Assembly (NCBI GenBank): GCA_039192515.1
Contig: JBCCXA010000009.1
Coordinates: 925 to 64,924, forward strand
Origin: Verrucomicrobiota bacterium
GTDB taxonomy: Bacteria; Verrucomicrobiota; Verrucomicrobiia; Methylacidiphilales; JBCCWR01
DNA length: 64,000 bases
Direction: 5' to 3'
Shown: piece by piece, positions 40,494 to 55,100 of the stretch
How positions within the stretch are numbered: position 1 is the stretch's first letter
How the letters are laid out: every line of letters begins with the position of its first letter
The notes under the pieces: model-generated
Told to the model about the DNA's origin: nothing
Databases searched by the model: none
What the model saw: only the letters and a program-made list of their open reading frames with translations
Translations under genes and position numbers: made by a program

Positions 40494-41153
40494 TTAAATC
40501 CGCTTGGTGTCATAGCTTGTGAATGTTAGTTGATGTTCCTTCGCCCAAAGGATTAAATTTTCTACGGCATCTGGTAGCCAAGATTTGTCAATAGAGACAC
40601 TGTGACAGTTTTCATGCAACACTATGGCGCCGCCTTTGTTTTTTAGAAGTCTCTTTTTGATTTGATCCATTTTCTGTTTGCCAGATGCCGGGTCGGACCA
40701 AGCTTCGCTGATAAAGAAAGTTAGGTAGGCAGTGTCTAAAGATAACTCTTTTAATAAGTGTTTCACTGCCGGAGTGACTATTCCCCATGGAGGGCGGAAA
40801 AGTTTTGGAGACTTGTTATGAGCTTTCGTTATTGTTTTAAATAATTTCTGTGTTTTATCTGTTTCGTGTAAGAGGCGTTTTTTAGACAGAAGGGGCCAGG
40901 GAGTATGCGAATAGGTGTGATAAGCAACGGAATGGTTTTCATCGATAGCTCTTTTAACAATCGCAGGATGTTTTTTTATATTTCTTCCAATGTAGCAGAA
41001 AGTTGCAGGTATCTGGTGGCTTTTAAGCACATCGAGCAGTTGATTCGATATGCTTATATTTGGATTTGGACCATCATCAAAAGTCAAAATGATTTTGCCT
41101 TCTCCAGCTGGCCAATGCTTTGGTTCTAAAATGGTTGAAAGCATGCAGCTCAA
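40494..41153 (-). CDS. Polysaccharide deacetylase (NodB/CE4)
   Basis: LTFDDGP, HTYSH, LFRPPWG, IVLHE. Confidence 0.88.
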   Translation of the reverse strand: MSCMLSTILEPKHWPAGEGKIILTFDDGPNPNISISNQLLDVLKSHQIPATFCYIGRNIKKHPAIVKRAIDENHSVAYHTYSHTPWPLLSKKRLLHETDKTQKLFKTITKAHNKSPKLFRPPWGIVTPAVKHLLKELSLDTAYLTFFISEAWSDPASGKQKMDQIKKRLLKNKGGAIVLHENCHSVSIDKSWLPDAVENLILWAKEHQLTFTSYDTKRI

Positions 41154-41194
41154 TTAAAAGGCGTGGAATTCATTTTGTAAACAGCTGCGTTTTT

Positions 41195-42592
41195 CTAAAC
41201 CCTGTAAGTAAGATCCTTGTAAGTAGTGAGTGGCCACTGCTCTGGTGATTGGCAAATATCTTGTAGTAAAATGAGTAGCCAAGAGCAATCTTGGTATTGA
41301 TGCATGCCAGTTTTAATGAGCTTTAGAAGTTTATTTGTCTCTTTGTTTATAATTGTACTTTTACAAGAGCAGAGCCAAGCCAGTAGGCCTTTAGCATCTA
41401 GGCTAAATTCGTTAAGCTCTGCCTTGTCTTTAGCAATCTTGGAGTTAGATAAAAGCCATTCAATTTGGTGGCTATTGTCAAGGGGTAGGATAGAAAGCTG
41501 CTCACCTTTTCTTTCTTTTGCAAATAAAAGAACAGAGAGAGATATTGGATCCCAGTCATTGAGATCTGTTTGTTTTGAGGTGTTTTGTTCCAGGAAAAAA
41601 TGAGCGAGCCATAACCATGACGTAGCGAATGCTTGGTATAACTCAGGCTGGCAATAAACGCCAACCTCAATGGTATTTTCAAGATCCTTTAGCACCTGCT
41701 TGGAAAATCTTTTGAGCTCGATCCAGTTTTCTTGTTTCATGTAATACTGGCAAAGGTAAAAGGATGCTGAGATGTAGTGAGGGTAAGCCTTAAGGATTTC
41801 TTGTGCGCTACGAAGTCCCATCTCGTATTTATTCTGTTGTGAAAAATAAACTAAAAAATTTCCAAAATCTTGTCTCCAGTAATTATTTAACAGGCGCTCT
41901 TCAGTGGAGTAAGTTTGGTTAATGAGCTGGAAACGTTGTTCAAACTCTTTGTTTTCACCAGTGATAAGGAGATAAGACATAAGCTGGCAAAGGCGAGACA
42001 AATCAGGCTTATCTCCTTTGACAAGAGGTCGTAGACGCTTGAGCATTCGTTCCCCTTTTTCTTGGCGCAATTTGGCGTCCCACATGTATCCATAGTGAAT
42101 CATCTTTCCATTTAAATGGACCATGCCTTGTCTTTGGTTTAGCTGTGGGTGAACCTCTCCTTCAAATCGTAAATCATCAAAACGCCGGAAAACTCGTGTC
42201 GTTCGCACAGTGTTAGATGTGCCTTGTGGCATCTTGTTCTCTTCTAGAAATGTTATGGCATTAATACTGTTGTCTTGGTTTATATTACGAAGTTTGTTAA
42301 TCAACTCTACTTGTAGCCCGGAGGAAAGTTCCTGGTCAGCATCCAAAACCAAAACCCAGCTCCCGGTGGCGATTTTGAGAGACTCATTACGTGCGGCAGC
42401 CTCATCTCCATTCCAGGCAAAGAAACCCGTTTTAGCCTGATAACTCTCAGCAATTTCTAGTGTTTTATCAGTGGAGCCTGTGTCGATAATCACGATCTCC
42501 TGCGCAATTTCTTTGACGCTATCCAAGCAGCGAGGAAGATTCTTTTCCTCATCTTTAACGATCATAACAACACTAAGCAATAGATTTGACAT
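41195..42592 (-). CDS. GT2 glycosyltransferase with helical (TPR-like) C-terminus
   Basis: LSVVMIVKDEEKNLPRCLDSV, DTGSTD, AARNESL, LVLDADQ, FEGEVHPQL, HYGY. Start placed at ATG 42592. Confidence 0.88.
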   Translation of the reverse strand: MSNLLLSVVMIVKDEEKNLPRCLDSVKEIAQEIVIIDTGSTDKTLEIAESYQAKTGFFAWNGDEAAARNESLKIATGSWVLVLDADQELSSGLQVELINKLRNINQDNSINAITFLEENKMPQGTSNTVRTTRVFRRFDDLRFEGEVHPQLNQRQGMVHLNGKMIHYGYMWDAKLRQEKGERMLKRLRPLVKGDKPDLSRLCQLMSYLLITGENKEFEQRFQLINQTYSTEERLLNNYWRQDFGNFLVYFSQQNKYEMGLRSAQEILKAYPHYISASFYLCQYYMKQENWIELKRFSKQVLKDLENTIEVGVYCQPELYQAFATSWLWLAHFFLEQNTSKQTDLNDWDPISLSVLLFAKERKGEQLSILPLDNSHQIEWLLSNSKIAKDKAELNEFSLDAKGLLAWLCSCKSTIINKETNKLLKLIKTGMHQYQDCSWLLILLQDICQSPEQWPLTTYKDLTYRV

Positions 42593-42630
42593 AGTATTTT
42601 GAGCGCTGTGTCGCTCTACCAAGATGGTGC

Positions 42631-44544
42631 TTAACTAGAAGAAATAAAGATGTTATATCTTTCCAGTAAAGTGCCAGCAGTCTCAAAGAGTCTGATATAG
42701 GCCTTGTTGAGATCAACAGTTGCTGCTAGCTCCCGAACTTTAGCTTTATGAAGATCACGTCTAAACTTAAAAAGAGTATTTTCAGTGGTGAGACCTTTTT
42801 CAAGGCGTATTTCTTCCTCTTCATAGGAACGTTGAGCATTGGCATGAAAGAGTTGCATGGCCTCAAGGCGTTCTCGGTTAGATTCTATGATGGCAATAAG
42901 TTGTTGAAAGGCCAATGAGGTTTGTAGTTCGAGATTTTTTAGTTCTAGTATACTTTGTCTCTTTCGGTGTTGTGCTTCGTGCTTGCGACCAATGGCTTCG
43001 TCATTGCCGAGGGGAATGGAGAAGACCGCTCCGACGGACCATTCGGAGCCTTGACCTCCGAAAGATCGCGTGTAGCTACCCCCAATGCTAGGAGACAAGC
43101 CATTTATTCCGTAGGTGCCTTTAAGATCGAGTTGAGGCCAGACCTGGTTCTCGGCAAAAACGAGTCTGATATCTTCTCGCTCAACTTTTCGTTTAGCGAT
43201 TTTATATGCGGGGCTCGAGCTGAAGGCCTCGGCAACCAGATTGTTATAATCTAGATCAATATGGGGGATGATAAGCTTAGTTGTTGGAATAAAGACTGAA
43301 GTTCTATTAGGTGTGGGGTGGTTAGTCGTGAGAATTTGAAGTTCGGTCTGTTTGGCAAAGACTTCATTACGAGCTAGGACTAGTTCTTCAATGACTTCGG
43401 CAAGAGTTGCTTCTGCTTTATTGAGGTCGCCGGGGGAAACAAGCCCTTTTTCGAGTAGTTCCCTTTTTTCTTTGGCTAACTCAGAGGCTAGATCTTGCTC
43501 AAGCTCCTTGAGCTTTAAATTTCTCACGTGATACATGAGATCAAAGTAGGCTTTTAAGGTTTCGCTAACTGTTTCGAGCATAGCTGCTTCTAGCTCGAGC
43601 CTAGAGATCAATTTGTTTTTTCTAGCAACACGGATTTCTGCGAGGTTTACATCTGTTCCAAAATTACGGAGTAGCGGCTGGGTAAGTGTCATCCCGGTAA
43701 AGGTGCTATATTCTGGGCTAAATAAAGAAAGAGCGCTTTGCTGGGGACCTGACTCAATCAAGGTATTTCTTAGAATGTCTTGTTTAGTAAAGAGATCATA
43801 TTCAGTGCCCGTAGGGAGTTTGCCCTCTAACGATAGTTCATAGCTCCAGTTTTCTTCAGTGAAAATACGAGGATCGCTACTTAGAATAACTGCATTACCA
43901 CCACTACTAATAAATTCCTCGGTATTTTGAGGAGTACGTATCTTTTCATACTGTCCTTCAAAGGAGAGCTCGGGGTTAAATCCCCCAATCTGTTGTCGAA
44001 GAACATCTTGGGCGATGGAGATATCCAGTTTCTTCACTTCAACATCTAAGTTTTTTGTTAGAGATGAAGAAATAGCAGATGGCAAGTCCAGTGTAATTTC
44101 TGGCAGAGCTTCTAAAGTTGGGATTTTGTATTCATCTTCCGAGGAACTAGATGAGCCGTAGTATGTCGGCAAAGAATTCGGAGGCACGGAATCTGACTCT
44201 GGGATATCAGGTGGTGAGCCTGTAGGGGATTCGTTCAGTTCGGTTGTTTCTGTGGTTAGAGTTGGCTCTGTATTAGAACTGACAGCATCCAGGCCATCCG
44301 GCTCAAAAGGGTCGTCGTCCGAGCTAGTAGTGGTCGTTGTTGTTGAACTACTGGTGCTAGCAATCAAGCTTCCTGCAAGAAGCGCATGTTTCTTGGCTAG
44401 TGGAGACTCGAGTTTAGCAACCTGAGTAGAAGAGGATTTAGAGCAACCGACAACAACAACAGCAAAAATGAAGCTAGAGAGCAAAACATATATGCTCGTT
44501 ATCTTTAGTTTATTTTTATTTCCAAGCATGACATTTTTTAACAA
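42631..44544 (-). CDS. TolC-family outer membrane channel with long Ser/Thr/Pro-rich N-terminal extension
   Basis: TLTQPLLRNFG, AENQVWPQLDL, WSVGAVFSIPLG and heptad helices. Lipobox-like VVVVGC followed by a low-complexity linker. Confidence 0.88.
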   Translation of the reverse strand: MLKNVMLGNKNKLKITSIYVLLSSFIFAVVVVGCSKSSSTQVAKLESPLAKKHALLAGSLIASTSSSTTTTTTSSDDDPFEPDGLDAVSSNTEPTLTTETTELNESPTGSPPDIPESDSVPPNSLPTYYGSSSSSEDEYKIPTLEALPEITLDLPSAISSSLTKNLDVEVKKLDISIAQDVLRQQIGGFNPELSFEGQYEKIRTPQNTEEFISSGGNAVILSSDPRIFTEENWSYELSLEGKLPTGTEYDLFTKQDILRNTLIESGPQQSALSLFSPEYSTFTGMTLTQPLLRNFGTDVNLAEIRVARKNKLISRLELEAAMLETVSETLKAYFDLMYHVRNLKLKELEQDLASELAKEKRELLEKGLVSPGDLNKAEATLAEVIEELVLARNEVFAKQTELQILTTNHPTPNRTSVFIPTTKLIIPHIDLDYNNLVAEAFSSSPAYKIAKRKVEREDIRLVFAENQVWPQLDLKGTYGINGLSPSIGGSYTRSFGGQGSEWSVGAVFSIPLGNDEAIGRKHEAQHRKRQSILELKNLELQTSLAFQQLIAIIESNRERLEAMQLFHANAQRSYEEEEIRLEKGLTTENTLFKFRRDLHKAKVRELAATVDLNKAYIRLFETAGTLLERYNIFISSS

Positions 44545-44596
44545 CCCGCGAAAGTCTTTCAGATTCGCAAAGGCTTGTCAACTTTTGCTGGTTAAC

Positions 44597-46573
44597 CTAG
44601 ACCGCAGAAGATTTCCCGGAAAAGGATAGGTTTTCGTCTAACCAGGTGTCATGTTTCAGAACACGCTTTCTTGTCTTAAAAGCCATGCTTGAGGCCATCC
44701 ACTGAGCCCATGCGAATAAATGAATAATCCAACTGGGCAAAGGTTTAGGTAAGGTTCCACCCACAGCTTTTAAGAGAGAAAGTGGTAAAAACCGTAGGGT
44801 TAATTCGTCGTTAATAGATACAATAAACCGGGCGCTCCCAGGATCTCCTTGTCGGCCTGATCTACCAATGAGTTGTCTATCAATGCGAGATGACTCATGG
44901 ATCTCAGTAGCAATGACGTGAAGTCCTCCTAATTCTCTCACTCCGTGTCCGAGCTTTATATCTGTGCCACGTCCAGCCATGTTTGTGGCAATGGTTATCC
45001 GGCCAAGTTGTCCGGCTTTAGAGATAATTTGAGCTTCGTCTTCCTGCCGGAGGGCATTGAGGATTTCGAATTGTAACCCCATCTTACTGAGATGTTTGGC
45101 CACCAACTCGCTGCTTTGAACAGACCGTGTGCCGATTAGGAGGGGGCGATCCTTTTGATGCAATTTTTTTGCCTCGCAAGCAACAGCTTTCCATTTGTCG
45201 TTCTGAGAGGCAAAAATTTGGTCAGGGTATCTTTTGCGTAATGCAGGGCGGTGTGTAGGAATTTTTAGGACTGCTAGATGGTAGATTTGCCAGAGTTCTT
45301 CCTTGGATTCATATGCGGTTCCAGATAGACCCGAGAGGTTTGGATAACAACGAAAAAATCTTTGAAAGCTCATAGAAGCTATAGATTCATTAGGAGGTGT
45401 GATTTCTACGTTTTCTTTAGCTTCCACCGCTTGGTGCAATCCTTGTTGCCACGTGCGATGCTCCATAATCCGACCAGTGAATTCATCTATGAGTTCTATT
45501 TTTCCCTCGTTTATGGCATAATGAACATCTTTTAGATAAAATTCTCTTGCAATTAAAGCGGTACGAATGAGGTCGTGGAAGCGCTCCCTGTTTCGCCAAG
45601 CAGCAGGGAGAATCGAAGCTTTGCTAAAGAGTCGATCATTAATTTGAGATACGATACTGATTTCTCGGAACTTGAAATCAACCTGATAGTCTTGACCACG
45701 TTTTAGGGGTGCAATCAGCTTTTTAGCGTGAATACTGGCTGATTCGAGATCTTTATTCCTGACGCGTTGTGAAATAATAAGTGGTGTCACGGCTTCGTCA
45801 ATGAGGACGCTATCTGCTTCATCCACAATGGCAAAATGTAAACCACGCATGACTACACTTTGATGGCGGTTTTGTCTTTTTGCCAGATTACGAATCAGGC
45901 GGCGAGTGGGGTCATAGGGAGTACTTAAGGCTATACGATCTCTTAAAAAATCAGCTAAAGCTTCTTTTGGTGTAGTGTAGGTGATATGTGCTGCATAGGA
46001 TTTCTCGCGCTCATTAGCAGGCATGTGACCAGTGACGGATCCAACCGATAAGCCGAAAAAACGGAATAAAGCCTCCATCTCTTGACTGTCGCGTGAGGCT
46101 AAGTAATCGTTGGCTGTAATGACATGGCAAGGTCTACCTGTGCTTCCCATGAGAGTAGCAGCTAGTGCGACAGTAAGTGTTTTCCCCTCTCCGGTGGCCA
46201 TTTCAGCTAAATATCCATGGAATAGGCTGGCCGCACTAGCAAGTTGAACCGGGTAAGGACTTAGTTGTAGTGCTCGCTTTGCTCCGAGAACTAGCATAGC
46301 AAGACCTTCTGCTACGGCTTTATCTGTGGCAGGGAATTTGAGGAAATGAAGGCGCAGGTTTTTTAAACGGGATACAACCTCTTTGTCTGTAATGGACTCA
46401 TTTCGCTCAGCTATATGCTGAGCTTTCTTAGCTAATTCTAAAAAGTATTTTAGTGAACTTTTGCGGCGCTTGTATTTACCATGGAGTGAAAAAATAAAGG
46501 CATCAAGGCCTTGATAGCTTTTGCATTTTTCACTTGCTTTGAGCCGCCAATAATCTAACTGGAAATTTGACAT
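44597..46573 (-). CDS. Truncated SecA-like DEAD ATPase (NBD1-PPXD-NBD2 only)
   Basis: EMATGEGKT, TANDYLASRD, IVDEADSVLIDEA, GLHQAVEAKE, ATNMAGRGTDI and RIDRQLIGRSGRQGDPG. The protein ends about 70 aa after NBD2, so it lacks the wing domain and two-helix finger. Confidence 0.88.
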   Translation of the reverse strand: MSNFQLDYWRLKASEKCKSYQGLDAFIFSLHGKYKRRKSSLKYFLELAKKAQHIAERNESITDKEVVSRLKNLRLHFLKFPATDKAVAEGLAMLVLGAKRALQLSPYPVQLASAASLFHGYLAEMATGEGKTLTVALAATLMGSTGRPCHVITANDYLASRDSQEMEALFRFFGLSVGSVTGHMPANEREKSYAAHITYTTPKEALADFLRDRIALSTPYDPTRRLIRNLAKRQNRHQSVVMRGLHFAIVDEADSVLIDEAVTPLIISQRVRNKDLESASIHAKKLIAPLKRGQDYQVDFKFREISIVSQINDRLFSKASILPAAWRNRERFHDLIRTALIAREFYLKDVHYAINEGKIELIDEFTGRIMEHRTWQQGLHQAVEAKENVEITPPNESIASMSFQRFFRCYPNLSGLSGTAYESKEELWQIYHLAVLKIPTHRPALRKRYPDQIFASQNDKWKAVACEAKKLHQKDRPLLIGTRSVQSSELVAKHLSKMGLQFEILNALRQEDEAQIISKAGQLGRITIATNMAGRGTDIKLGHGVRELGGLHVIATEIHESSRIDRQLIGRSGRQGDPGSARFIVSINDELTLRFLPLSLLKAVGGTLPKPLPSWIIHLFAWAQWMASSMAFKTRKRVLKHDTWLDENLSFSGKSSAV

Positions 46574-46584
46574 CGGAAGGGTAG

Positions 46585-48738
46585 TTACAACTTGAGTCTG
46601 TCTTGAAGAACTTGCCTGATCAATCTCCAGCCTTGTTTGAGTAATGGTTCGTAACCAATATGAAAGCGAATTTGTCCTCTACGGTGTTGGACAAAATAAA
46701 CATTTTCTTGATTCTCAAGCTCTGCATAAATCATAAAGAAAGGCTCTTTGCTTGTAACCCCCTGAGGATCTTCTTGTGAAACTTCGATTTCACCACCACC
46801 ACCCCAACCTAGAGCGGGTGAAGGCAATGCTTTCTGCTCTCCGGGAATTCGAATCATATTGAGCACTTCAATTTCTTTACCAGCTTGACCTATCAGTCGG
46901 ACTGAAGCACCGCGTATCGATTGAAAGAAAACATCCGCAGCTTGTGGTTGCTCTACGATAGCAACAAAGCGATAGCTAGTAGGTTTGAGGAAGACTCCGA
47001 TTGGGGTGCCCTTGTGAAACCAGGCGCCGATTTGCTGGTCTAATTCAGGGGCGGCCCAAACTCCGTCATAGGGAGCTGTTATATTGAGGCGTTCTTTTTC
47101 CTCCAGATAGAATTTTAGATTTTTCCGTGCGCTTTCCAGTTTAAGCTGGACGGGTTTGATGCGAACATTTTCTTTAAAGGCTAGATTTTGCAAGGTAGCC
47201 CTAGATGCGCGTATCTCGGCCTGAGCTTGTTCAATTTTCCAGTCTAGTGCTAAGTCGCTAAACACCATGAGCTTATCACCTGCCTCTACTTTGGTGCCTG
47301 GACGCGTATAAACTTGCTCTAAGCGACCAGAGGTAGGCGCAAATAGCCGAAGGAATTTATCAGCTTCTACCACCCCGTGTGCTCTGGCATGCAGTGGAAA
47401 GGGTATAATGGCCAATAGGGTGATCGTGCCTACGAGAATTGAAAAAACGATGGTCAGGGCTCGGTTTCTAGTAGCGTCTAAGCCCGGGTCTGTAAACAGA
47501 TAGTAAAAAAATTTGTACAAAGGCATAGCTAACCAAATAAATGAAGTGATAGCTGCTAAGACAATACCTAGCCCAAAGAATTGGTCAGCCACGATGAGAG
47601 CAATACTCGTTAATAGAAAAATACGATAAAGGCCTGCACTTATTCCATAGATAGCCAACCAAATGCTTTCCGAGTTAGATTGTGCAGCAGGGAGCATGTG
47701 ACGGCATTTAAAGATAAATTTTTCCAAAAGGTATTTCAATTGCTGGTTGGAGCGTTGAGACATATTAGGGATTTCGATAAGGTCTGAGAGAATGTAATAG
47801 CCATCAAAACGCAAAAGAGGATTTATGTTAAATAAAAAGGTAGTGATGGATGCGATGACCATCAAATTATAGGCCATGGCATTCATAGTGGTATCCGAGG
47901 TATTGGCCCAAATGATGACAGCAATAGCTGCGAGGAAGAATTCAAAGATCATTCCGGCGGCTGCGACGTAAATGCGATTCCATTTACTGCGAAAGCCCCA
48001 ACTTGTTGTAGCGTCGACATAGGGAATGGGTGTGAAGATTAGTAACATGACACCTAACGTGCGCACTTCTCCTCCTAAGACCCGGCATATCAAACCATGA
48101 CCGAGTTCATGCCAAAACTTTGCAATCACACCACAGAGATAGAGCAGGAAAAGGTTTCCAGGAGATAGAAGGCCCTCTGTTTGATCAAGCGCAGCGTCCC
48201 AGTTTTCAAAGAGTTCTTTAGCTCCTAGAAAAATAACAATGGACCAAAGGATCATTCCCCAACGATTTAAGAGAGGCCTGAAAAAGGGAAGCAGTGCATT
48301 AATAAATGGAGTAGGGTCACAAAGAGAAATTTTAATAAAGAGGAAATTAAGAAATTTGCTTCGTAACTCCTTATGTTCTGCTTTACGGCGTCTTTCTGAC
48401 ATAGCTGAGACATCAGGAGGAAAGTCGGAGTGAATGAGGTTACCCTGTGTCAATTGGGCAAGAAGTCGGACGACTTCTTGCTGTCCGGGCGTTTCATCAG
48501 GATAAATTTCTAAACATTCATTCCAGACTTCTTCGATTGTTCGTTCGATTCGTAGTCTAGCTACAAAATGGTAGCCAGCAGGAGAAAGACGGAAGAATTT
48601 ATTGCTAAATGGTTCGCTTAAAACATACCAAGGCACTCCTCTATAGCTTTGACGTTCAACTCGAACACTGGGATGTAGCTGCGCACTACGACTAGCAATA
48701 CGGTGCCAAGACTCACTGAATAATGAACTCCGATTCAT
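46585..48738 (-). CDS. M50 (site-2 protease) membrane protein fused to an HlyD-like adaptor; PqqD/RRE-like N-terminus
   Basis: HELGH and NINPLLRFDGYY motifs, several TMs, and a C-terminal barrel-sandwich (APTSGRLEQV...ITAPYDGVW). Confidence 0.85.
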   Translation of the reverse strand: MNRSSLFSESWHRIASRSAQLHPSVRVERQSYRGVPWYVLSEPFSNKFFRLSPAGYHFVARLRIERTIEEVWNECLEIYPDETPGQQEVVRLLAQLTQGNLIHSDFPPDVSAMSERRRKAEHKELRSKFLNFLFIKISLCDPTPFINALLPFFRPLLNRWGMILWSIVIFLGAKELFENWDAALDQTEGLLSPGNLFLLYLCGVIAKFWHELGHGLICRVLGGEVRTLGVMLLIFTPIPYVDATTSWGFRSKWNRIYVAAAGMIFEFFLAAIAVIIWANTSDTTMNAMAYNLMVIASITTFLFNINPLLRFDGYYILSDLIEIPNMSQRSNQQLKYLLEKFIFKCRHMLPAAQSNSESIWLAIYGISAGLYRIFLLTSIALIVADQFFGLGIVLAAITSFIWLAMPLYKFFYYLFTDPGLDATRNRALTIVFSILVGTITLLAIIPFPLHARAHGVVEADKFLRLFAPTSGRLEQVYTRPGTKVEAGDKLMVFSDLALDWKIEQAQAEIRASRATLQNLAFKENVRIKPVQLKLESARKNLKFYLEEKERLNITAPYDGVWAAPELDQQIGAWFHKGTPIGVFLKPTSYRFVAIVEQPQAADVFFQSIRGASVRLIGQAGKEIEVLNMIRIPGEQKALPSPALGWGGGGEIEVSQEDPQGVTSKEPFFMIYAELENQENVYFVQHRRGQIRFHIGYEPLLKQGWRLIRQVLQDRLKL

Positions 48739-48754
48739 ATTTTCTGATTGTATC

Positions 48755-50176
48755 CTAAAGCCACAATTTTAATCTTAAGAAATCAATAAGGCGATGGGTC
48801 ATCATGTAAAGGGGAGGCTTGGTGCCAGCATTGATTTTGACAATACCTGTCATGCCTGGGCGCCACCATTCATCCGGTGGACATTCGATGCTGCAGCGAA
48901 CATAAAAGACATTTTTTTTGTCGCGAGCAACTGCACTGGGCTCGATGAGTCTCACGGTGATGGGGTACTTGATTTCCGGGCGGCTCTTAAAAGCAATAGC
49001 TCCATCAGCTTTGACTAGGACTTCTTGAATATCCTCCTCTGGGATCATTGCTTGAGTATAAAGGTCTTCTAAACGGGCGATTTTCATAAGGACATCACCC
49101 TTTTCAACTGGAGCACCAATTTGTTCAGTAAGAGCTCCTTCGACGATGACACCGTCAAATGGGCTCACGATTTTTGAACGGCTTAATTTATAGCGGGTTT
49201 GTTTGAGTTCTGATTCAGACTGAGCTGCTTTAGCTGTGGCTATATGCATGTCACCAAGACTACTTTGACCAAGTGCGACTTGGGCTTCGCTTCGGTAGCG
49301 TTGCATAGTAGCCATGACTTCACTTTCTTGGAGTTTAAGTTCGCGAGTATCTAGGGCAATGAGTGGTTCCTCCTTTTTTACTTCCTTACCGGGAATGACA
49401 TGGACTTCTTTGATGTAGCCTTGGAAAGGAGCGGGTAGGTTGATGAGGGCATCCGTTTTTAAAATAAACTCTCCACTGACTTTGTAAGGCCATGGGTATA
49501 GGCATAAAAAAAGAAGCACGATTGTAACGAGTAGGCCCCCAAATTTCCACCATGTGTGTTCTGGTCCAAGAACGGTAGCCAACCAGCTGCGTGTTTTGTT
49601 CTCTCCGAGAAACCACCAACCTCTAGCGTATTTATGAAGTTCTTCGAGCCTTGGTGTAACTAGGTCACAAATTAACCGAAGTGCTTCTACTTCTGTTTCT
49701 TTAAACTGCGCGTTTTCTCTTTGCAAAGTGAGTGTACCAATGACTTGGGAATTTATTCTCAACGGCATTGACAGCATATTTGTTGCACCAAATTTTTGAT
49801 GAAAGTTTTGATGTTCTCGAGTGATGGTGAGTTCGTTGTCTTTAGTGGGCCAAACAACATTTTCATCTTGATCGGATGCTTCCAGCATTACCCGTTCGAG
49901 TTCTTGTGCGATCTCAGTTCTTTTTTCGATTTTATTTGAGTGACTTGTTGCTTTAAGTCTCATTTCATCGTCTTGCAAGCGGCCAATAGAAACACGTGTA
50001 CAACGAAAGTGAAAAACCAATTCATTGCAAAGAGAGAGTGCTGCGTGATCGTACCGACTACTTTGGTTGAGTAACGAGATCAGGTCCAGGGTGATCCATA
50101 GAGGTCCTTCTGGCATTTGATTATGCGTCTTAGAGGGCAATGAGGATGTTGTTTCAGACTCTATACTTTCTGACAT
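48755..50176 (-). CDS. GAF-domain / HlyD-family periplasmic adaptor fusion
   Basis: N-terminal GAF-like region (LSMPLRINSQVIGTLTLQR), one TM, then LPAPFQGYIKEVHV..G..V and IVSPFDGVIVEG. Confidence 0.85.
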   Translation of the reverse strand: MSESIESETTSSLPSKTHNQMPEGPLWITLDLISLLNQSSRYDHAALSLCNELVFHFRCTRVSIGRLQDDEMRLKATSHSNKIEKRTEIAQELERVMLEASDQDENVVWPTKDNELTITREHQNFHQKFGATNMLSMPLRINSQVIGTLTLQRENAQFKETEVEALRLICDLVTPRLEELHKYARGWWFLGENKTRSWLATVLGPEHTWWKFGGLLVTIVLLFLCLYPWPYKVSGEFILKTDALINLPAPFQGYIKEVHVIPGKEVKKEEPLIALDTRELKLQESEVMATMQRYRSEAQVALGQSSLGDMHIATAKAAQSESELKQTRYKLSRSKIVSPFDGVIVEGALTEQIGAPVEKGDVLMKIARLEDLYTQAMIPEEDIQEVLVKADGAIAFKSRPEIKYPITVRLIEPSAVARDKKNVFYVRCSIECPPDEWWRPGMTGIVKINAGTKPPLYMMTHRLIDFLRLKLWL

Positions 50177-50283: not shown

Positions 50284-51039
50284 ATGTTCATGCGATGGAA
50301 TTTGATATGGTTGATCAGCTTCTTTGGGGTAGTGGAGACACAAGCGCAGAAGTCAGATTTTAAAAATAGCTTAGGTATGTTGTTTGTGACAGTTCCGAAC
50401 ACAGAAGTTTATTTCTCTGTCTATGAAACAAGCGTAAAAGATTATCAGGTTTTTGTAAAAGAAACGAAGCGCACAGTTAAAAAGCCTTCTTTTAAGCAGA
50501 ATGGGAATCATGCAGCAGTCAATGTCAGCTGGGAGGATGCGAAAGCTTTCTGTTACTGGCTAACGGCAAAGGAGAGAAAAGAGAAAATTATCTCAGCTAA
50601 ACAGTATTATCGATTACCCAACGATAAGGAATGGAGCTTAGCTTCTGGGATTAAGGGTGCAGCAGATGAATTCTCTTTCGAAGATAATTTAGATTTTGAA
50701 TATCCTTGGGGAAAAGAATGGCCACCGCCCCCAGATGCTGGAAATTACAGCCCTGATTTGTTTGTAGATAACTACTCCCATACCTCTCCGGTAGGCAGTT
50801 TTAAGCCTAACAAACTTGGTATTTATGATCTTGGAGGCAATGTTTGGGAGTGGTGTGAAGATATTTTTAATCAATCTCCAGATTATCGAATTCTTCGAGG
50901 GGCCTCCTGGCGTATGCGTTTGCCAAATGACCTTCTCTTGACCAATAAAATCGGTAACCGTCCGGACCTTAGGCTTTCCGTGTATGGCTTCCGAATTGTT
51001 TTGACGAAAGATAAAAAAGAAGAAGACGCACTTCAGTAG
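50284..51039 (+). CDS. Exported FGE-sulfatase (SUMF1/EgtB/PvdO) domain protein
   Basis: VNVSWEDAKAFCYWL, YRLPNDKEW, YPWG, PVGSFKPNKLGIYDLGGNVWEW, GFRIVL. Confidence 0.88.
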   Translation: MFMRWNLIWLISFFGVVETQAQKSDFKNSLGMLFVTVPNTEVYFSVYETSVKDYQVFVKETKRTVKKPSFKQNGNHAAVNVSWEDAKAFCYWLTAKERKEKIISAKQYYRLPNDKEWSLASGIKGAADEFSFEDNLDFEYPWGKEWPPPPDAGNYSPDLFVDNYSHTSPVGSFKPNKLGIYDLGGNVWEWCEDIFNQSPDYRILRGASWRMRLPNDLLLTNKIGNRPDLRLSVYGFRIVLTKDKKEEDALQ

Positions 51040-51043
51040 GTTG

Positions 51044-51838
51044 CTAACTGGCAGCACCCACTTTTTTAGCATATCCTTGAACACTTGCTAGCAGCGTAGC
51101 AAGAAAGCCTGCAATGGTAACTAAGGAGCCAATCATTTCGCCTTTGTTCAATTCTAATTGATCACCTTCTTTAAATTGGCGAGTGTGGTCGGACATTTTG
51201 CGAGTTAGGCCGAGGATGGGCTCTCCGGAATCTGATTTAGCAGGCGTTTGCGACAAAGTAATCGTTCTAATTTTAAAGATATATTTGCCATCTTGGCAGA
51301 TCTCTTTTGTTGCTTTTCCTTCAAACATAATCATGCCTCTAGAAAAATCCATTAGGCTAAGAATTTGTTCTTGGAGCTCAGAAGATGCTGAGTATTTATC
51401 TTTCAAAAACTTGAATTTATCTGGGACTGGAAGATTCATAAACTCTTGACGGTCTTTGCCAGTGATTTTTTGGATTTCAGTGGCGTCGTTTTTGCCAGCA
51501 GATTTGTAATCACATAGGGCTAGCACAGTTCTGCAATCCTCTAATAGTGGCACAATGGTCGACAAAGCCTCTGTGATAAGATTTCGAGTAAGCCAATCTT
51601 GAGAAGCATTTTTTGCTGCCTCAAAGGAGCGTCTTTCTTTTTGTTGGGGTTGAACAGGAAATTGATTGGTAACACTATCGTAATCCTCTTCACTAACTTT
51701 GCGATATCCCGCGAGGTTCACCATCGCGATATCGAAAAGACGTTGATAAACATTTAGGTAACGATCTGCGATCTCGTTTAAACTAATCTTTTGTCCTGTA
51801 GGAGCTTCTTTTGTTTGGTTAGGCATGTTTGACATCAT
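51044..51838 (-). CDS. Hypothetical protein
   Basis: 264-aa ORF with normal composition and no recognised motif. Confidence 0.7.
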   Translation of the reverse strand: MMSNMPNQTKEAPTGQKISLNEIADRYLNVYQRLFDIAMVNLAGYRKVSEEDYDSVTNQFPVQPQQKERRSFEAAKNASQDWLTRNLITEALSTIVPLLEDCRTVLALCDYKSAGKNDATEIQKITGKDRQEFMNLPVPDKFKFLKDKYSASSELQEQILSLMDFSRGMIMFEGKATKEICQDGKYIFKIRTITLSQTPAKSDSGEPILGLTRKMSDHTRQFKEGDQLELNKGEMIGSLVTIAGFLATLLASVQGYAKKVGAAS

Positions 51839-52139
51839 TATCTAAAACCGCAGAAGGTCAATAGTTTGTTCAGTAAGCATGCGATTATTGTATTTTTCAT
51901 AAATTAATATAATTACAATAATGAAATAGAATTTATACATAAACTTTAGCATAGTTCGATGATGATTGGAGAGTTGAAATTAATCCAGTTTTATCTGATT
52001 AATACTTGATTATAACAGTGCTGTCTTCAGAATCAAACAAGTCTTTGGTTGCGAAAGACTGTTAATGTTGGGAGGGTTTAGATGGCAGGAATATTACCTG
52101 TCATCGTATCCCTATTTATACCAAAAAGAGGTAATAAAT

Positions 52140-55100
52140 ATGGCTAAGACAAAAACTAAAAATCGGAATCGCTGGAAACAACCCCGAAAGCACAAGAAAA
52201 TCCCAAGGCATCTGCAATATGATTTGCAAACATTAGAGCCGAGGCTTTTATTTTCTGCCGCCTTGTATGATCCTGGAGATGGCGGCGGTTCTGGGGATAG
52301 TGATGTCGCAACGAATATAGAAACGCAGTTAACGGATACTTTTACTTTTCTCGGCAAGTATGCAGACGAGATAGGAACCGAAGAGGCAGCAGATTCCTCA
52401 GCAGTTCCTTTTTTCCAATCAAGCGTTGAGGATTTATTAGGTTTTGAGATTGAAGACTTTTTAAAGGGTGGGTCAGGTAGTGATGCATATAGCCAAGTAG
52501 TTGATGACTACTTTGACAATGCGAGTCCGGATTCCACAGGCCTTGCTGCTGACCTACAGAGCGCAGTGCAGAACACCTTTGGAGTTGGATCTGTTACGGA
52601 TACAGGCTCGGACAATGATAATCTGATATTAAATTTCTCTATCGATCTGAATGAAGTTACAAAGGACCTAAAATTTGGCACCGAAGCTCAGGAGTTTTTC
52701 TTAGAATATGGAGCAGGTGCCCAAGTAAAGTTTAATGCGGATGCCATAACGTTCTCTATTAAAGCTGATTTAAGTGGAGTGGATAATGTGGCAACAGATG
52801 AAACAGATAACTCCTCTAACGATAGCCTTTATTCAGTCGAGTTTGGTGGCAGTGATAAAGACACGTTATCTATAATGGGTTCTTCGAGTCATACCAATAG
52901 TCTAGATCCCTTAACCGGATTTGGAGTTGGTTTTGGACTCATTGATGCTCGGGATGATGTAATGGACTCGGGTGGTTATGTTGCTAACACAGGCGGGACT
53001 TTCTCTTTTAATCTTCAACTTGATTTTATCTTGGAGAGTTCTTTGTCTGCTGATAGTAAGCTCAGTCTGGATGAGCTCAGAGCAATTGATACTGCTTCAT
53101 CATATGAAAGCATCTACAGAGTGGATACTCCAACCGGTGCGGGTGTTAATGAAGGTGAACTCTTTTTACCAATCCAAGTAGCTAACCCAGCAGGGGATGA
53201 GTTTATTAGCGGTATTGATGGTATCACCGGAGACTTTACCTTTACCGATAACGATCTTTTTGATAGCCGTTCACCCTTGGTTCAAGCAAGTGATCAGACA
53301 TTAGCTTCTTTTTCGAGGATGACTGCTGATGATCTTTTACAGTTTGTTAAAAACGCTACCTATCTCTTTGGTCAGAGTTCAGATCTAACAGAGATGCAAA
53401 ATTTTCTTCCATTACTTGATCTTAACCTGGGCCAAGCGTATGATTTCCTGGAGGCTTCAGAAAAAGCATTAGTTGATCCTTTAGTCATCATTGAGAATGT
53501 ATTACGCATCAAAGATGCGCCATCAACAAGTGGTGATCCACTTGATTACACGGGTAATAGTAGCTTTCAAATTTATGTCTTTTACCAAGGTGTCTTAGAA
53601 GGTGGTGCCTTGCAAATCATTACTCTCAATGCGAATAGCTCCCGTGCTTCACTGCAAGATGTTGCCGATGACTTAAATATTGCGCTCGCTGCCGCTGCCG
53701 CAGGGACCCAAAGAGTCTTCGCACGGGTAACCGAAACCGCTTCTCCTCGGCTAGAGTTGTATGGTGTAGATGCGGATACGACCTTCTTCATTAGTAGTGT
53801 GAATCCAAGTGGAGAAACATTAGATCTTGGTATTGATCCTTATGGACTGGTCTTTGCTCGAAACAATGGAACGATCTCGAGCAATCAAAATGAGAAATAT
53901 CAGCTACAAGAAGTTAAGGTAGAGTCTTCCACCGCCATAGAGGTAAGTCATTTTACAACACTAAAGACTTTTACTGTAGCAATTGGCTCTGACAGCGCGA
54001 CCACCATTACTTTGCCTCCAAGTGTTTATGGCTCTATGGCAGATTTTGTATTTGCCTTACAATCGGCTTTAGCGGAGGCTGGCGTCTACGATGCGAGCAC
54101 GGGCGAGGGAATTGAGGTGGATGAAGCTACTTCCGGGGATAGTCAGGGCTTCGGGGTAACTTTTTCTATTAGTGGTTCTCGTTCAGGGGAAACACTAACG
54201 CTTGGGGGTAGTGATGTGGGGATTTTCCAGTTAAGTGCGACAAGTGGAGCGAGCTCCTATACCTCGGCAACTCCTGTAGAACTCTCTCCTTTTGAGTCGG
54301 GGTTATCTCTGACTATTTCATTCAGCTCTCAGCAGGCTGGGCTATTGGCGACAACTACAGAGACTATTTCGATTCCCGCAGGAAAATATGCGTCCGTCGA
54401 TGATGTGATTTTTGCTATTCGCGAAGCTCTTCAAAGCAATGGTCTTTATGATGCTTTTACGAATACGGGGATATTGATTGAGAAGATTCCTGTGGGTGGT
54501 GGCGAAGGTATACGTTTTTATACCTCGGCAGAGGTTTATGAGCTAACCATTTCTACCTCTAGTAATAGCCTCATAGGATTATCCAGTACGAGTGAAAGCG
54601 CTACGGCGGCTTACATTGATATTGATGTGAAGCAAGATGGCAATGCATCCGCAACGACTACTCGAGTTTACATCAATGGCAACACAACGACAGATCTTTT
54701 AGGAAATTCCACCAACACCTCTGTTTCAGACTTTGTTAGTGATGTGCAAAGTGCTTTGACTCGAGCAGGTTTAAGGGACTCTCTTTCTGGAACTGGAGTG
54801 GATATTCGCTCCTTTGACCAGAATGGGAGTTCAACTGATTATTTAGAATTCTTTGCATTAAATCCAGGTGCCGGTTCTGGCTTTATCCAAGAAATTTCGA
54901 CTGGAGCTTCTGCTTCATTTGGTATGGATGACTATAACTTAGATGGATTGGCTGCCCAAGTAATGGCTTTATCTGCCGAGGATCAAAAACCTCGGTTTAG
55001 TAATGTGCAAGAATTTGTCGCGCTCCTTAATCAATCTACGGGATTACCACAGGTCAGTGTGGACCTTAATGGCTCCGCTGATGGTGTGGAGATCAGCCGT

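Follow-up and report, generated by a model that had tools for sequence, protein, structure and literature searches.

A basic LEPR-type leader on a giant verrucomicrobial protein as a candidate targeting signal for a neighbouring SecA-like, protease-adaptor and TolC apparatus

Results

The stretch of DNA analysed here (the window; 64,000 nucleotides of contig JBCCXA010000009.1 in assembly GCA_039192515.1, from a Verrucomicrobiota bacterium) carries the start of a gene for a giant protein and, at a distance of 2 kb from it, a cassette of four genes on the other strand (42631–50176, −). The giant gene begins at 52140 (+), runs to the end of the window at 64000 and continues on the contig (C9) to the window-equivalent position 69578, coding for 5,812 amino acids. 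The N-terminus of this protein, encoded at 52140–52259 (+; translation MAKTKTKNRNRWKQPRKHKKIPRHLQYDLQTLEPRLLFSA), is a short basic leader that ends in a LEPR-type motif. The probable role of this leader as a targeting signal for the apparatus encoded by the cassette is the subject of this report; proteins with an N-terminus of this kind are called tagged below.

The first cassette gene codes for a GAF-HlyD adaptor (48755–50176, −) with a GAF domain, one transmembrane segment (residues 212–230) and a periplasmic membrane-fusion domain; because there is a single transmembrane segment, the GAF domain is placed in the cytoplasm. It is followed by a 717-aa fusion of an RRE-like (PqqD-like) domain, an M50 intramembrane protease (HELGH) with five hydrophobic segments, and an HlyD-type adaptor (46585–48738, −), hereafter the M50-adaptor. 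Next come a short SecA paralog of 658 aa (44597–46573, −), composed of a DEAD motor, a preprotein cross-linking domain and a second nucleotide-binding domain, and a TolC-like outer-membrane factor (42631–44544, −), to which domain and signal scans assigned a lipoprotein-type signal with a 19-aa hydrophobic stretch and a VVVVGC lipobox. After its signal, the TolC-like protein has a Ser/Thr-rich linker of ~40 residues, a feature uncommon in the TolC family. The order GAF-HlyD, M50-adaptor, SecA paralog was conserved in a set of 80 related loci from many phyla: the M50-adaptor was present in 80/80 and the GAF-HlyD adaptor in 74/80, and the SecA paralog stood directly after the M50-adaptor in 69/80, many of the loci that lack one cassette gene being located on short contigs.

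The four genes match the ‘secondary SecA_DEAD’ locus described in silico by Kamneva, Poudel and Ward (2015; PMC4452313), in which a short SecA_DEAD paralog accompanies genes for Peptidase_M50/HlyD, GAF/HlyD and OEP-family proteins. That paper names no cargo or signal, and the words LEPR, giant and cargo are absent from it. All four genes lie beside the tagged giant in the window, and the same was observed in four further genomes (G005, G013, G023 and G024).

The composition of the leader was examined next to that of the rest of the protein. Thirteen of its first 24 residues are Lys, Arg or His, as counted in the preliminary description of this DNA; the binomial probability of such a count is 2e-11 at the protein's own K+R+H content (5.1%) and 9e-6 at a content of 15%. 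Among the genome's 2,106 other open reading frames (ORFs) with 200 aa or more, none had a similarly K/R/H-rich start, and the N-terminus at 52140 is the only one of LEPR type in the 3.7 Mb. The basic N-region (residues 1–31; 52140–52232, +) carries a net charge of +10 plus two His, has neither a hydrophobic core nor an RR pair, and is matched by homologous basic regions in relatives. The net charge falls to −45 over residues 41–340 and −555 over all 5,812 residues, which bears out the earlier statement that the mature region is strongly acidic.

Three observations support ATG 52140 as the true start. A Shine-Dalgarno-like AGAGG, read from the sequence (52127–52131, +), precedes it with an 8-nt spacer; relatives share the leader design, with a Met 28–43 residues N-terminal to LEPR; and the entry for this gene in a public protein collection, an independent gene call, has 5,812 aa and starts MAKTKT. 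At least one gene caller did, then, call the giant ORF, which the preliminary description had listed as missed by annotation. Before the motif, in-frame alternatives are limited to ATG 52065 and the adjoining TTG 52068, upstream of which no comparable purine-rich site was seen, and which would add 25 residues that are absent from relatives. A promoter and terminator scan of the 300-bp intergenic region gave results no better than those of shuffled sequences.

The leader was compared with classical signal peptides. Upstream of LEPR, RR pairs are absent and hydrophobic runs do not exceed two residues, in agreement with the earlier claim that neither a hydrophobic h-region nor a twin-arginine motif precedes the motif; adjacent arginines, and with them the S/T-R-R-x-F-L-K pattern of Tat signals, were not found anywhere in residues 1–40. 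The longest hydrophobic run in residues 1–70 is LLFSAALY (8 aa), which is C-terminal to LEPR and flanked by R and D; the ~10 or more hydrophobic residues that follow the basic n-region in a Sec signal are thus not present. Two proteins encoded at the same locus, the TolC-like protein and an FGE-sulfatase-like protein, served as Sec controls and have ordinary signals with hydrophobic cores of 11–19 aa. Since the basic N-region and LLFSAALY superficially look like an n-region with a short h-region, a cryptic Sec or Tat signal peptide was considered, together with a chance motif and a wrong start. However, the hydrophobic stretch has only 8 residues, a D at +9 interrupts it in most family members, and there is no RR; the curated profile finds the motif in syntenic orthologues, which argues against chance; and the Shine-Dalgarno site, the relatives and the independent gene call argue against a start elsewhere, which the preliminary description had named as grounds for abandoning its reading. 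We give this group of explanations almost no weight.

The core motif of the leader, LEPRLLFSA (residues 32–40; 52233–52259, +), contains LEPRLLF at residues 32–38, that is, L-E-P-R-x-L-L within the first ~60 residues. It is matched, at a borderline score, by the NCBIfam profile NF012209 (LEPR-8K, ‘LEPR-XLL domain-containing protein’), which aligns to leader residues 30–42. Against a curated cut-off of 17 bits, and with only model positions 4–16 of 24 aligned, the score was 16.7 bits for a 200-aa piece, 13.5 bits for the 3,953-aa part of the protein in the window, and 18.9 bits, flagged as over the cut-off, in a six-frame search of the genome. The related Pfam family PF07595 (Planc_extracel; gathering cut-off 25.5 bits) gave no match to the leader at E-values up to 10; the LEPR stretch of the orthologue in G005 scored 12.8 bits with it. 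These two curated families fit the earlier claim that LEPRxLL motifs mark the N-termini of very large proteins. What the window leader has in common with them is a short N-terminal LExRxLL after basic residues on a very large protein of extracellular type; it differs in its borderline NF012209 score, the missing PF07595 match, a Q at −2 and an unusually basic N-region (+10). The family records, as far as they were readable, name no reading machine.

A logo was built from 67 leaders of relatives and of other phyla. Its consensus is phi(−5) x phi(−3) E(−2) x L E P R [IVL] L L S A [D] [P/L], where phi denotes a hydrophobic residue; L-E-x-R is invariant, P at +2 occurs in 44/67 and E at −2 in 65/66. 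Within the up to 30 residues before the motif, net charge has a median of +5 and the longest hydrophobic run a median of 3. In the window leader, Y-D-L-Q-T (52218–52232, +) occupies the conserved phi-x-phi-E-x positions before LEPR, so that hydrophobic residues are retained at −5 and −3 and the Q at −2 is the sole non-E in the set; at +6 it has F rather than L, as do 6 of the 67 leaders. The borderline NF012209 score is explained by Q at −2 and F at +6. Its charge of +10 is the maximum of the set, and several leaders of the class are only 12–19 residues long and carry little charge. Strong basicity is therefore common in the LEPR-XLL class, not universal or defining, and the conserved part is phi-x-phi-E-x-LEPR-phi-LLSA. 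We class the leader as a new and slightly atypical example of this known type of motif.

Beyond the leader, the giant protein is Cys-free and acidic (825 D+E against 270 K+R), and its relatives have 5,222–6,885 aa. With 5,812 residues it has the features of a very large extracellular-type protein, an extracellular location being predicted only, and we propose that it is an acidic surface or extracellular protein. A cargo of this kind, huge, acidic and Cys-free, encoded near TolC and HlyD-type adaptors, resembles the giant RTX/LapA-type adhesins of type I secretion, and RTX repeats do occur near the C-terminus of some tagged proteins. The leader could accordingly be an N-terminal retention or anchor module, with export C-terminus-first by a type I route and the basic LEPR end staying in the cytoplasm or plugging the duct, as in LapA-type adhesins. 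Several findings argue against this. Type I secretion uses a C-terminal signal, an ABC motor and C-to-N transport; here the tag is N-terminal, and no ABC transporter was seen among the neighbouring genes. A Pfam scan of all 5,812 residues found no domain, and specifically no HemolysinCabind/RTX, and the C-terminus is a hydrophobic patch with a basic tail, unlike a type I signal. A 40-residue unstructured tag is also unlike the folded retention domain of LapA, and an RRE, as a cytoplasmic reader of leaders, fits initiation better than plugging. Retention thus appears quite unlikely.

The C-terminal feature lies in the last ~70 residues of the giant (contig C9 70290–70499, beyond the window), where a short hydrophobic patch is followed by a basic tail, GVWTAGALLLVPVVKSVDMLAKAKKAVKTMMSLF. 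The G005 orthologue and three database relatives retain patch and tail, which are absent from the tagged giants of other phyla and may be a membrane anchor or sorting signal. We also considered whether the tag is generally paired with a C-terminal membrane anchor, and rejected this as a feature of the class, the anchor being conserved only within the close orthologue group and not across phyla.

To what extent the tag and the cassette occur together was determined by scanning genome contigs for the M50-adaptor, for which a single-sequence query found nothing and an alignment-based query worked. NF012209 hits over the cut-off were present in 46 of 50 genomes bearing the M50-adaptor (Verrucomicrobiota, Planctomycetota, alpha-, beta- and gamma-Proteobacteria, Nitrospirota, Desulfobacterota, Fibrobacter and others) and in 0 of 14 control genomes. 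Within the phylum of the window, 251 genomes of at least 90% completeness were sampled, and M50-adaptors scoring at least 680 bits were taken as close-clade. All 20 genomes with such an M50-adaptor were LEPR-positive, and the remaining 231 yielded six marginal LEPR hits (≤22.2 bits, on ORFs of ≤838 aa; Fisher p = 1.2e-24, without phylogenetic correction). Similarly, among 151 genomes of Planctomycetota, the M50-adaptor was found in 22 of 23 LEPR-positive and 22 of 128 LEPR-negative genomes (p = 2.6e-13, likewise uncorrected for phylogeny), the sole LEPR-positive genome without it having a 20-bit hit. The LEPR-positive genomes of the window's phylum are spread over at least nine families, and the gene arrangement varies between clades.

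Tag and cassette are often adjacent as well. The tagged gene was within 5 kb of the M50-adaptor gene in 11 of the 20 Verrucomicrobiota genomes, with a usual gap of 2.1–2.4 kb; as this corresponds to one SecA-paralog gene, the tagged gene stands directly after the SecA paralog and in the same direction. The cassette and the tagged gene are divergent in the window and in G005, G013, G023 and G024. In alpha- and gamma-proteobacteria, the cassette is closely preceded by the 3′ ends of ORFs of 4,710–12,332 aa, which have a LEPR start at the place predicted by the ORF length. Cultured, non-pathogenic strains in which a tagged gene adjoins the complete cassette include Marinobacterium mangrovicola DSM 27697, Shimia gijangensis DSM 100564 and Histidinibacterium lentulum B17, and the locus of Methylobacterium extorquens AM1 is among those described in PMC4452313. 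At one locus, in Marinobacter suaedae chi1 (L133), a tagged cargo of 1,716 aa, whose leader is MDKKQKKRGAPLIEA followed by LEPRMLFSAD, is encoded 1.4 kb after the M50-adaptor, and no SecA paralog was detected within the 22.8-kb locus. This variant would either have its motor encoded at another place or do without a SecA paralog, and M. suaedae was dropped as a small-cargo model on account of the missing paralog.

The tag is also portable. One planctomycete genome (Phycisphaeraceae) contains 20 LEPR N-termini; each of them has a basic stretch, and none has a hydrophobic core. Nine mid-sized tagged proteins of this genome were scanned and were mutually unrelated and of extracellular type, including a 304-aa RTX protein, trypsin-like proteases, and proteins with FG-GAP, Golvesin_C or cadherin/CARDB domains. 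The same tag on unrelated proteins is the pattern of a secretion signal. G005 (contigs C22, C36 and C7; L193, L194 and L195) has two cassettes that are paralogous, each including a SecA paralog, together with two tagged giants whose leaders are of different subtypes, LEPRYLLSANLYDP and LEPRVLFSAVPAV; this offers a natural case for the specificity between leader and reader.

A candidate reader of the leader was sought in the M50-adaptor. In an AlphaFold2 model of its residues 1–135, built from a 45-sequence alignment (pLDDT 82), three to four strands precede three helices. The best matches of this model in the PDB were to TbiB1, a lasso-peptide RRE, in complex with a leader (probability 1.0, TM-score 0.68–0.70), with further matches to the RRE-containing TglHI, CteB and ThcOx. 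The model thus supports an RRE-like fold for this domain and makes it a candidate leader reader. RRE (PqqD-like) domains read the leaders of ribosomally synthesized and post-translationally modified peptides (RiPPs), as in TbiA/TbiB1 (PDB 5v1u and 5v1v), and with such a fold in the neighbouring protease a short conserved leader motif would be the expected ligand. The protease core resembles the NCBIfam daptide leader peptidase NF041824 (1.4e-46), at 159 bits and so under that model's cut-off of 300 bits. Unlike in RiPP systems, the ‘peptide’ here has 5,812 residues, modifying enzymes are lacking, and a secretion adaptor is joined to the protease in one protein.

This kinship extends to a small-genome relative (L191/L192; G032:C1:796000–835999), in which a distant M50-adaptor of 26% identity has radical-SAM/SPASM-like and HlyD-type genes nearby. 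This locus, in which the distant M50-adaptor adjoins a radical-SAM gene and no SecA paralog is present, has the look of one for RiPP-type export, and the comparison suggests that the LEPR system may have arisen when a RiPP-type exporter that processed leaders acquired a SecA motor.

The same observations raise the possibility that the tag serves processing or maturation only, the RRE-M50 protease clipping the N-terminus as a RiPP leader peptidase does while the information for export resides elsewhere. The closest sequence family of the protease is indeed a RiPP leader peptidase, the N-terminal domain of the M50-adaptor is RRE-like, and distant M50-adaptors are encoded in RiPP-like loci that contain a radical-SAM enzyme and lack a SecA paralog. 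Against it, the protease and a periplasmic membrane-fusion adaptor form a single covalent chain, and the SecA paralog comes directly after them in 69 of the 80 loci; the tag is the only common element seen in the 20 tagged proteins of one genome, the nine scanned differing in their domains; and C-termini are not conserved among tagged giants of different genomes. We regard a purely processing role as unlikely.

For the motor, the question is whether the short SecA paralog acts with its own apparatus or hands the tagged protein to the housekeeping SecYEG as an accessory Sec route, the adaptors and the TolC-like protein serving the outer-membrane step only. Gram-positive accessory SecA2 systems export very large glycoproteins with unusually long N-terminal signals and offer a precedent, a glycosyltransferase and a deacetylase are encoded after the TolC gene here, and no dedicated inner-membrane channel is evident. 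However, the leader has no hydrophobic core with which to engage the lateral gate of SecYEG. The paralog gave no match to SecA_SW (scaffold/wing), and its alignment to full-length SecA models ends near position 550 of 790; the region it is missing is the one that carries the SecY-engaging two-helix finger. A housekeeping SecA is encoded elsewhere in the genome, on contig C6. Neither the GT2 glycosyltransferase nor the CE4 deacetylase (both within 40494–42622, −) was found in any of the 80 related loci; they were therefore rejected as core parts, which they probably are not. Hand-over to SecYEG is, on this evidence, very unlikely.

Two further genes lie between the cassette and the giant. The FGE-sulfatase-like protein used as a control above (50284–51039, +), with a Sec signal and the start MFMRWNLIWLISFFGVVETQAQ, has homologues encoded at the same place in G005:C7 and, in L066 and L130, adjoining the GAF-HlyD gene; possible roles are those of an accessory protein in the periplasm or of a factor that modifies the cargo. 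A 264-aa protein with a single C-terminal transmembrane segment and a tail-anchored look (51044–51838, −) had no family match and shares 67% identity with a protein encoded at the distal end of the syntenic G005 locus.

Discussion

From the sequence comparisons above, we consider it probable that the leader is a targeting signal for the neighbouring SecA-like, protease-adaptor and TolC apparatus. The preliminary description had put it forward as the export signal for this apparatus, and co-occurrence, adjacency, portability and the RRE-like fold of the neighbouring domain all lend that proposal support. Binding of the leader by the RRE-like domain and its cleavage by the M50 protease, as specific steps, are more tentative, with chances that we put a little short of even.

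Several points weigh against this reading. What links the leader to the apparatus, at this locus and its homologues, is association only. The Fisher tests ignore phylogeny, and tag and cassette could travel together on one island. The M50-adaptor family extends beyond the tag: of the 57 Verrucomicrobiota genomes in which the M50-adaptor had a match, 36 have no NF012209 hit (33 with M50-adaptors of distant subfamilies and three of the G019 clade), and four Planctomycetota have high-scoring M50-adaptor copies and no such hits; the distant M50-adaptor locus L191/L192 also comes without a SecA paralog and without a LEPR hit. At the window itself, the giant is transcribed divergently from the cassette and lies outside its operon, and its leader is a borderline member of NF012209 (16.7 bits against the cut-off of 17 for the 200-aa piece and 13.5 for the 3,953-aa part, with Q at −2 and F at +6). 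The fold-search E-values of the RRE matches are weak (0.017), although the matches are consistent with each other. Finally, an inner-membrane protein-conducting channel was not found at the locus, neither an ABC transporter nor a SecY-like gene; that the five hydrophobic segments of the M50 domain form this channel would be a guess.

The following sequence of events is proposed. The leader would act as a non-Sec, non-Tat N-terminal address, which, as it emerges, could be bound in the cytoplasm as an extended strand by the RRE-like domain of the M50-adaptor. The short SecA paralog would then push the chain from the N- to the C-terminus at the expense of ATP, through a duct across the envelope made of the two HlyD-type adaptors and the TolC-like lipoprotein, and the M50 site (HELGH) would probably remove the leader. 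Recognition by the RRE, the direction of transport, the cleavage of the leader and the identity of the inner-membrane channel are the parts of this scheme that we infer.

Double-glycine leader bacteriocins are exported by a peptidase-containing ABC exporter with an HlyD-type adaptor and TolC, as in colicin V and CvaAB-TolC. Such a system likewise has an N-terminal non-Sec leader, a protease built into the exporter (presumably so here), a membrane-fusion adaptor and TolC. Its substrate is a small peptide, its motor an ABC protein and its protease a C39 cysteine peptidase, whereas the cargo here has thousands of residues and is served by a SecA paralog and an M50 metalloprotease with an RRE. By analogy, it may be taken as the closest functional counterpart known to us, with motor and protease replaced.

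The LEPR motif was first described in Planctomycetota and was proposed as a novel export signal by Studholme, Fuerst and Bateman (2004; as cited in PMC8567305 and PMC3343278). Tuwongella immobilis has 52 motif proteins, 20 of which were seen in the proteome, and 8 of its 10 longest proteins carry the motif (PMC8567305). Two giants with ‘N-terminal 24 aa LEPRxLL’ domains from a Chlorochromatium epibiont are reported in a 2026 preprint to occur in the partner cell (bioRxiv 10.64898/2026.03.19.712371). The pairing of the LEPR tag with the secondary-SecA cassette is absent from the literature searchable here.

The wider proposal, towards which we lean slightly, is that LEPR-XLL would be the address of a distinct and widespread secretion pathway of diderm bacteria, in which an RRE reads the tag, a SecA-derived motor feeds the protein N-terminus first, possibly co-translationally, into a conduit of M50 protease, adaptors and TolC, and the protease removes the tag. 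The present analysis adds a description of the tag at the level of residues and two falsifiable tests of co-occurrence, and the window provides a clean example with a single cargo and a single machine. Giant LEPR-tagged proteins, some of more than 10,000 residues, are among the largest in bacteria, and the secondary-SecA locus has been without an assigned cargo since 2015. If the tag addresses this locus, the reader of the tag and the cargo of the locus would be explained together. The pathway would then be used by many of the largest bacterial proteins and, in some Planctomycetota, by dozens of ordinary exoproteins as well, and the tag would be a short, portable, non-Sec N-terminal signal, perhaps useful for the secretion of very large recombinant proteins.

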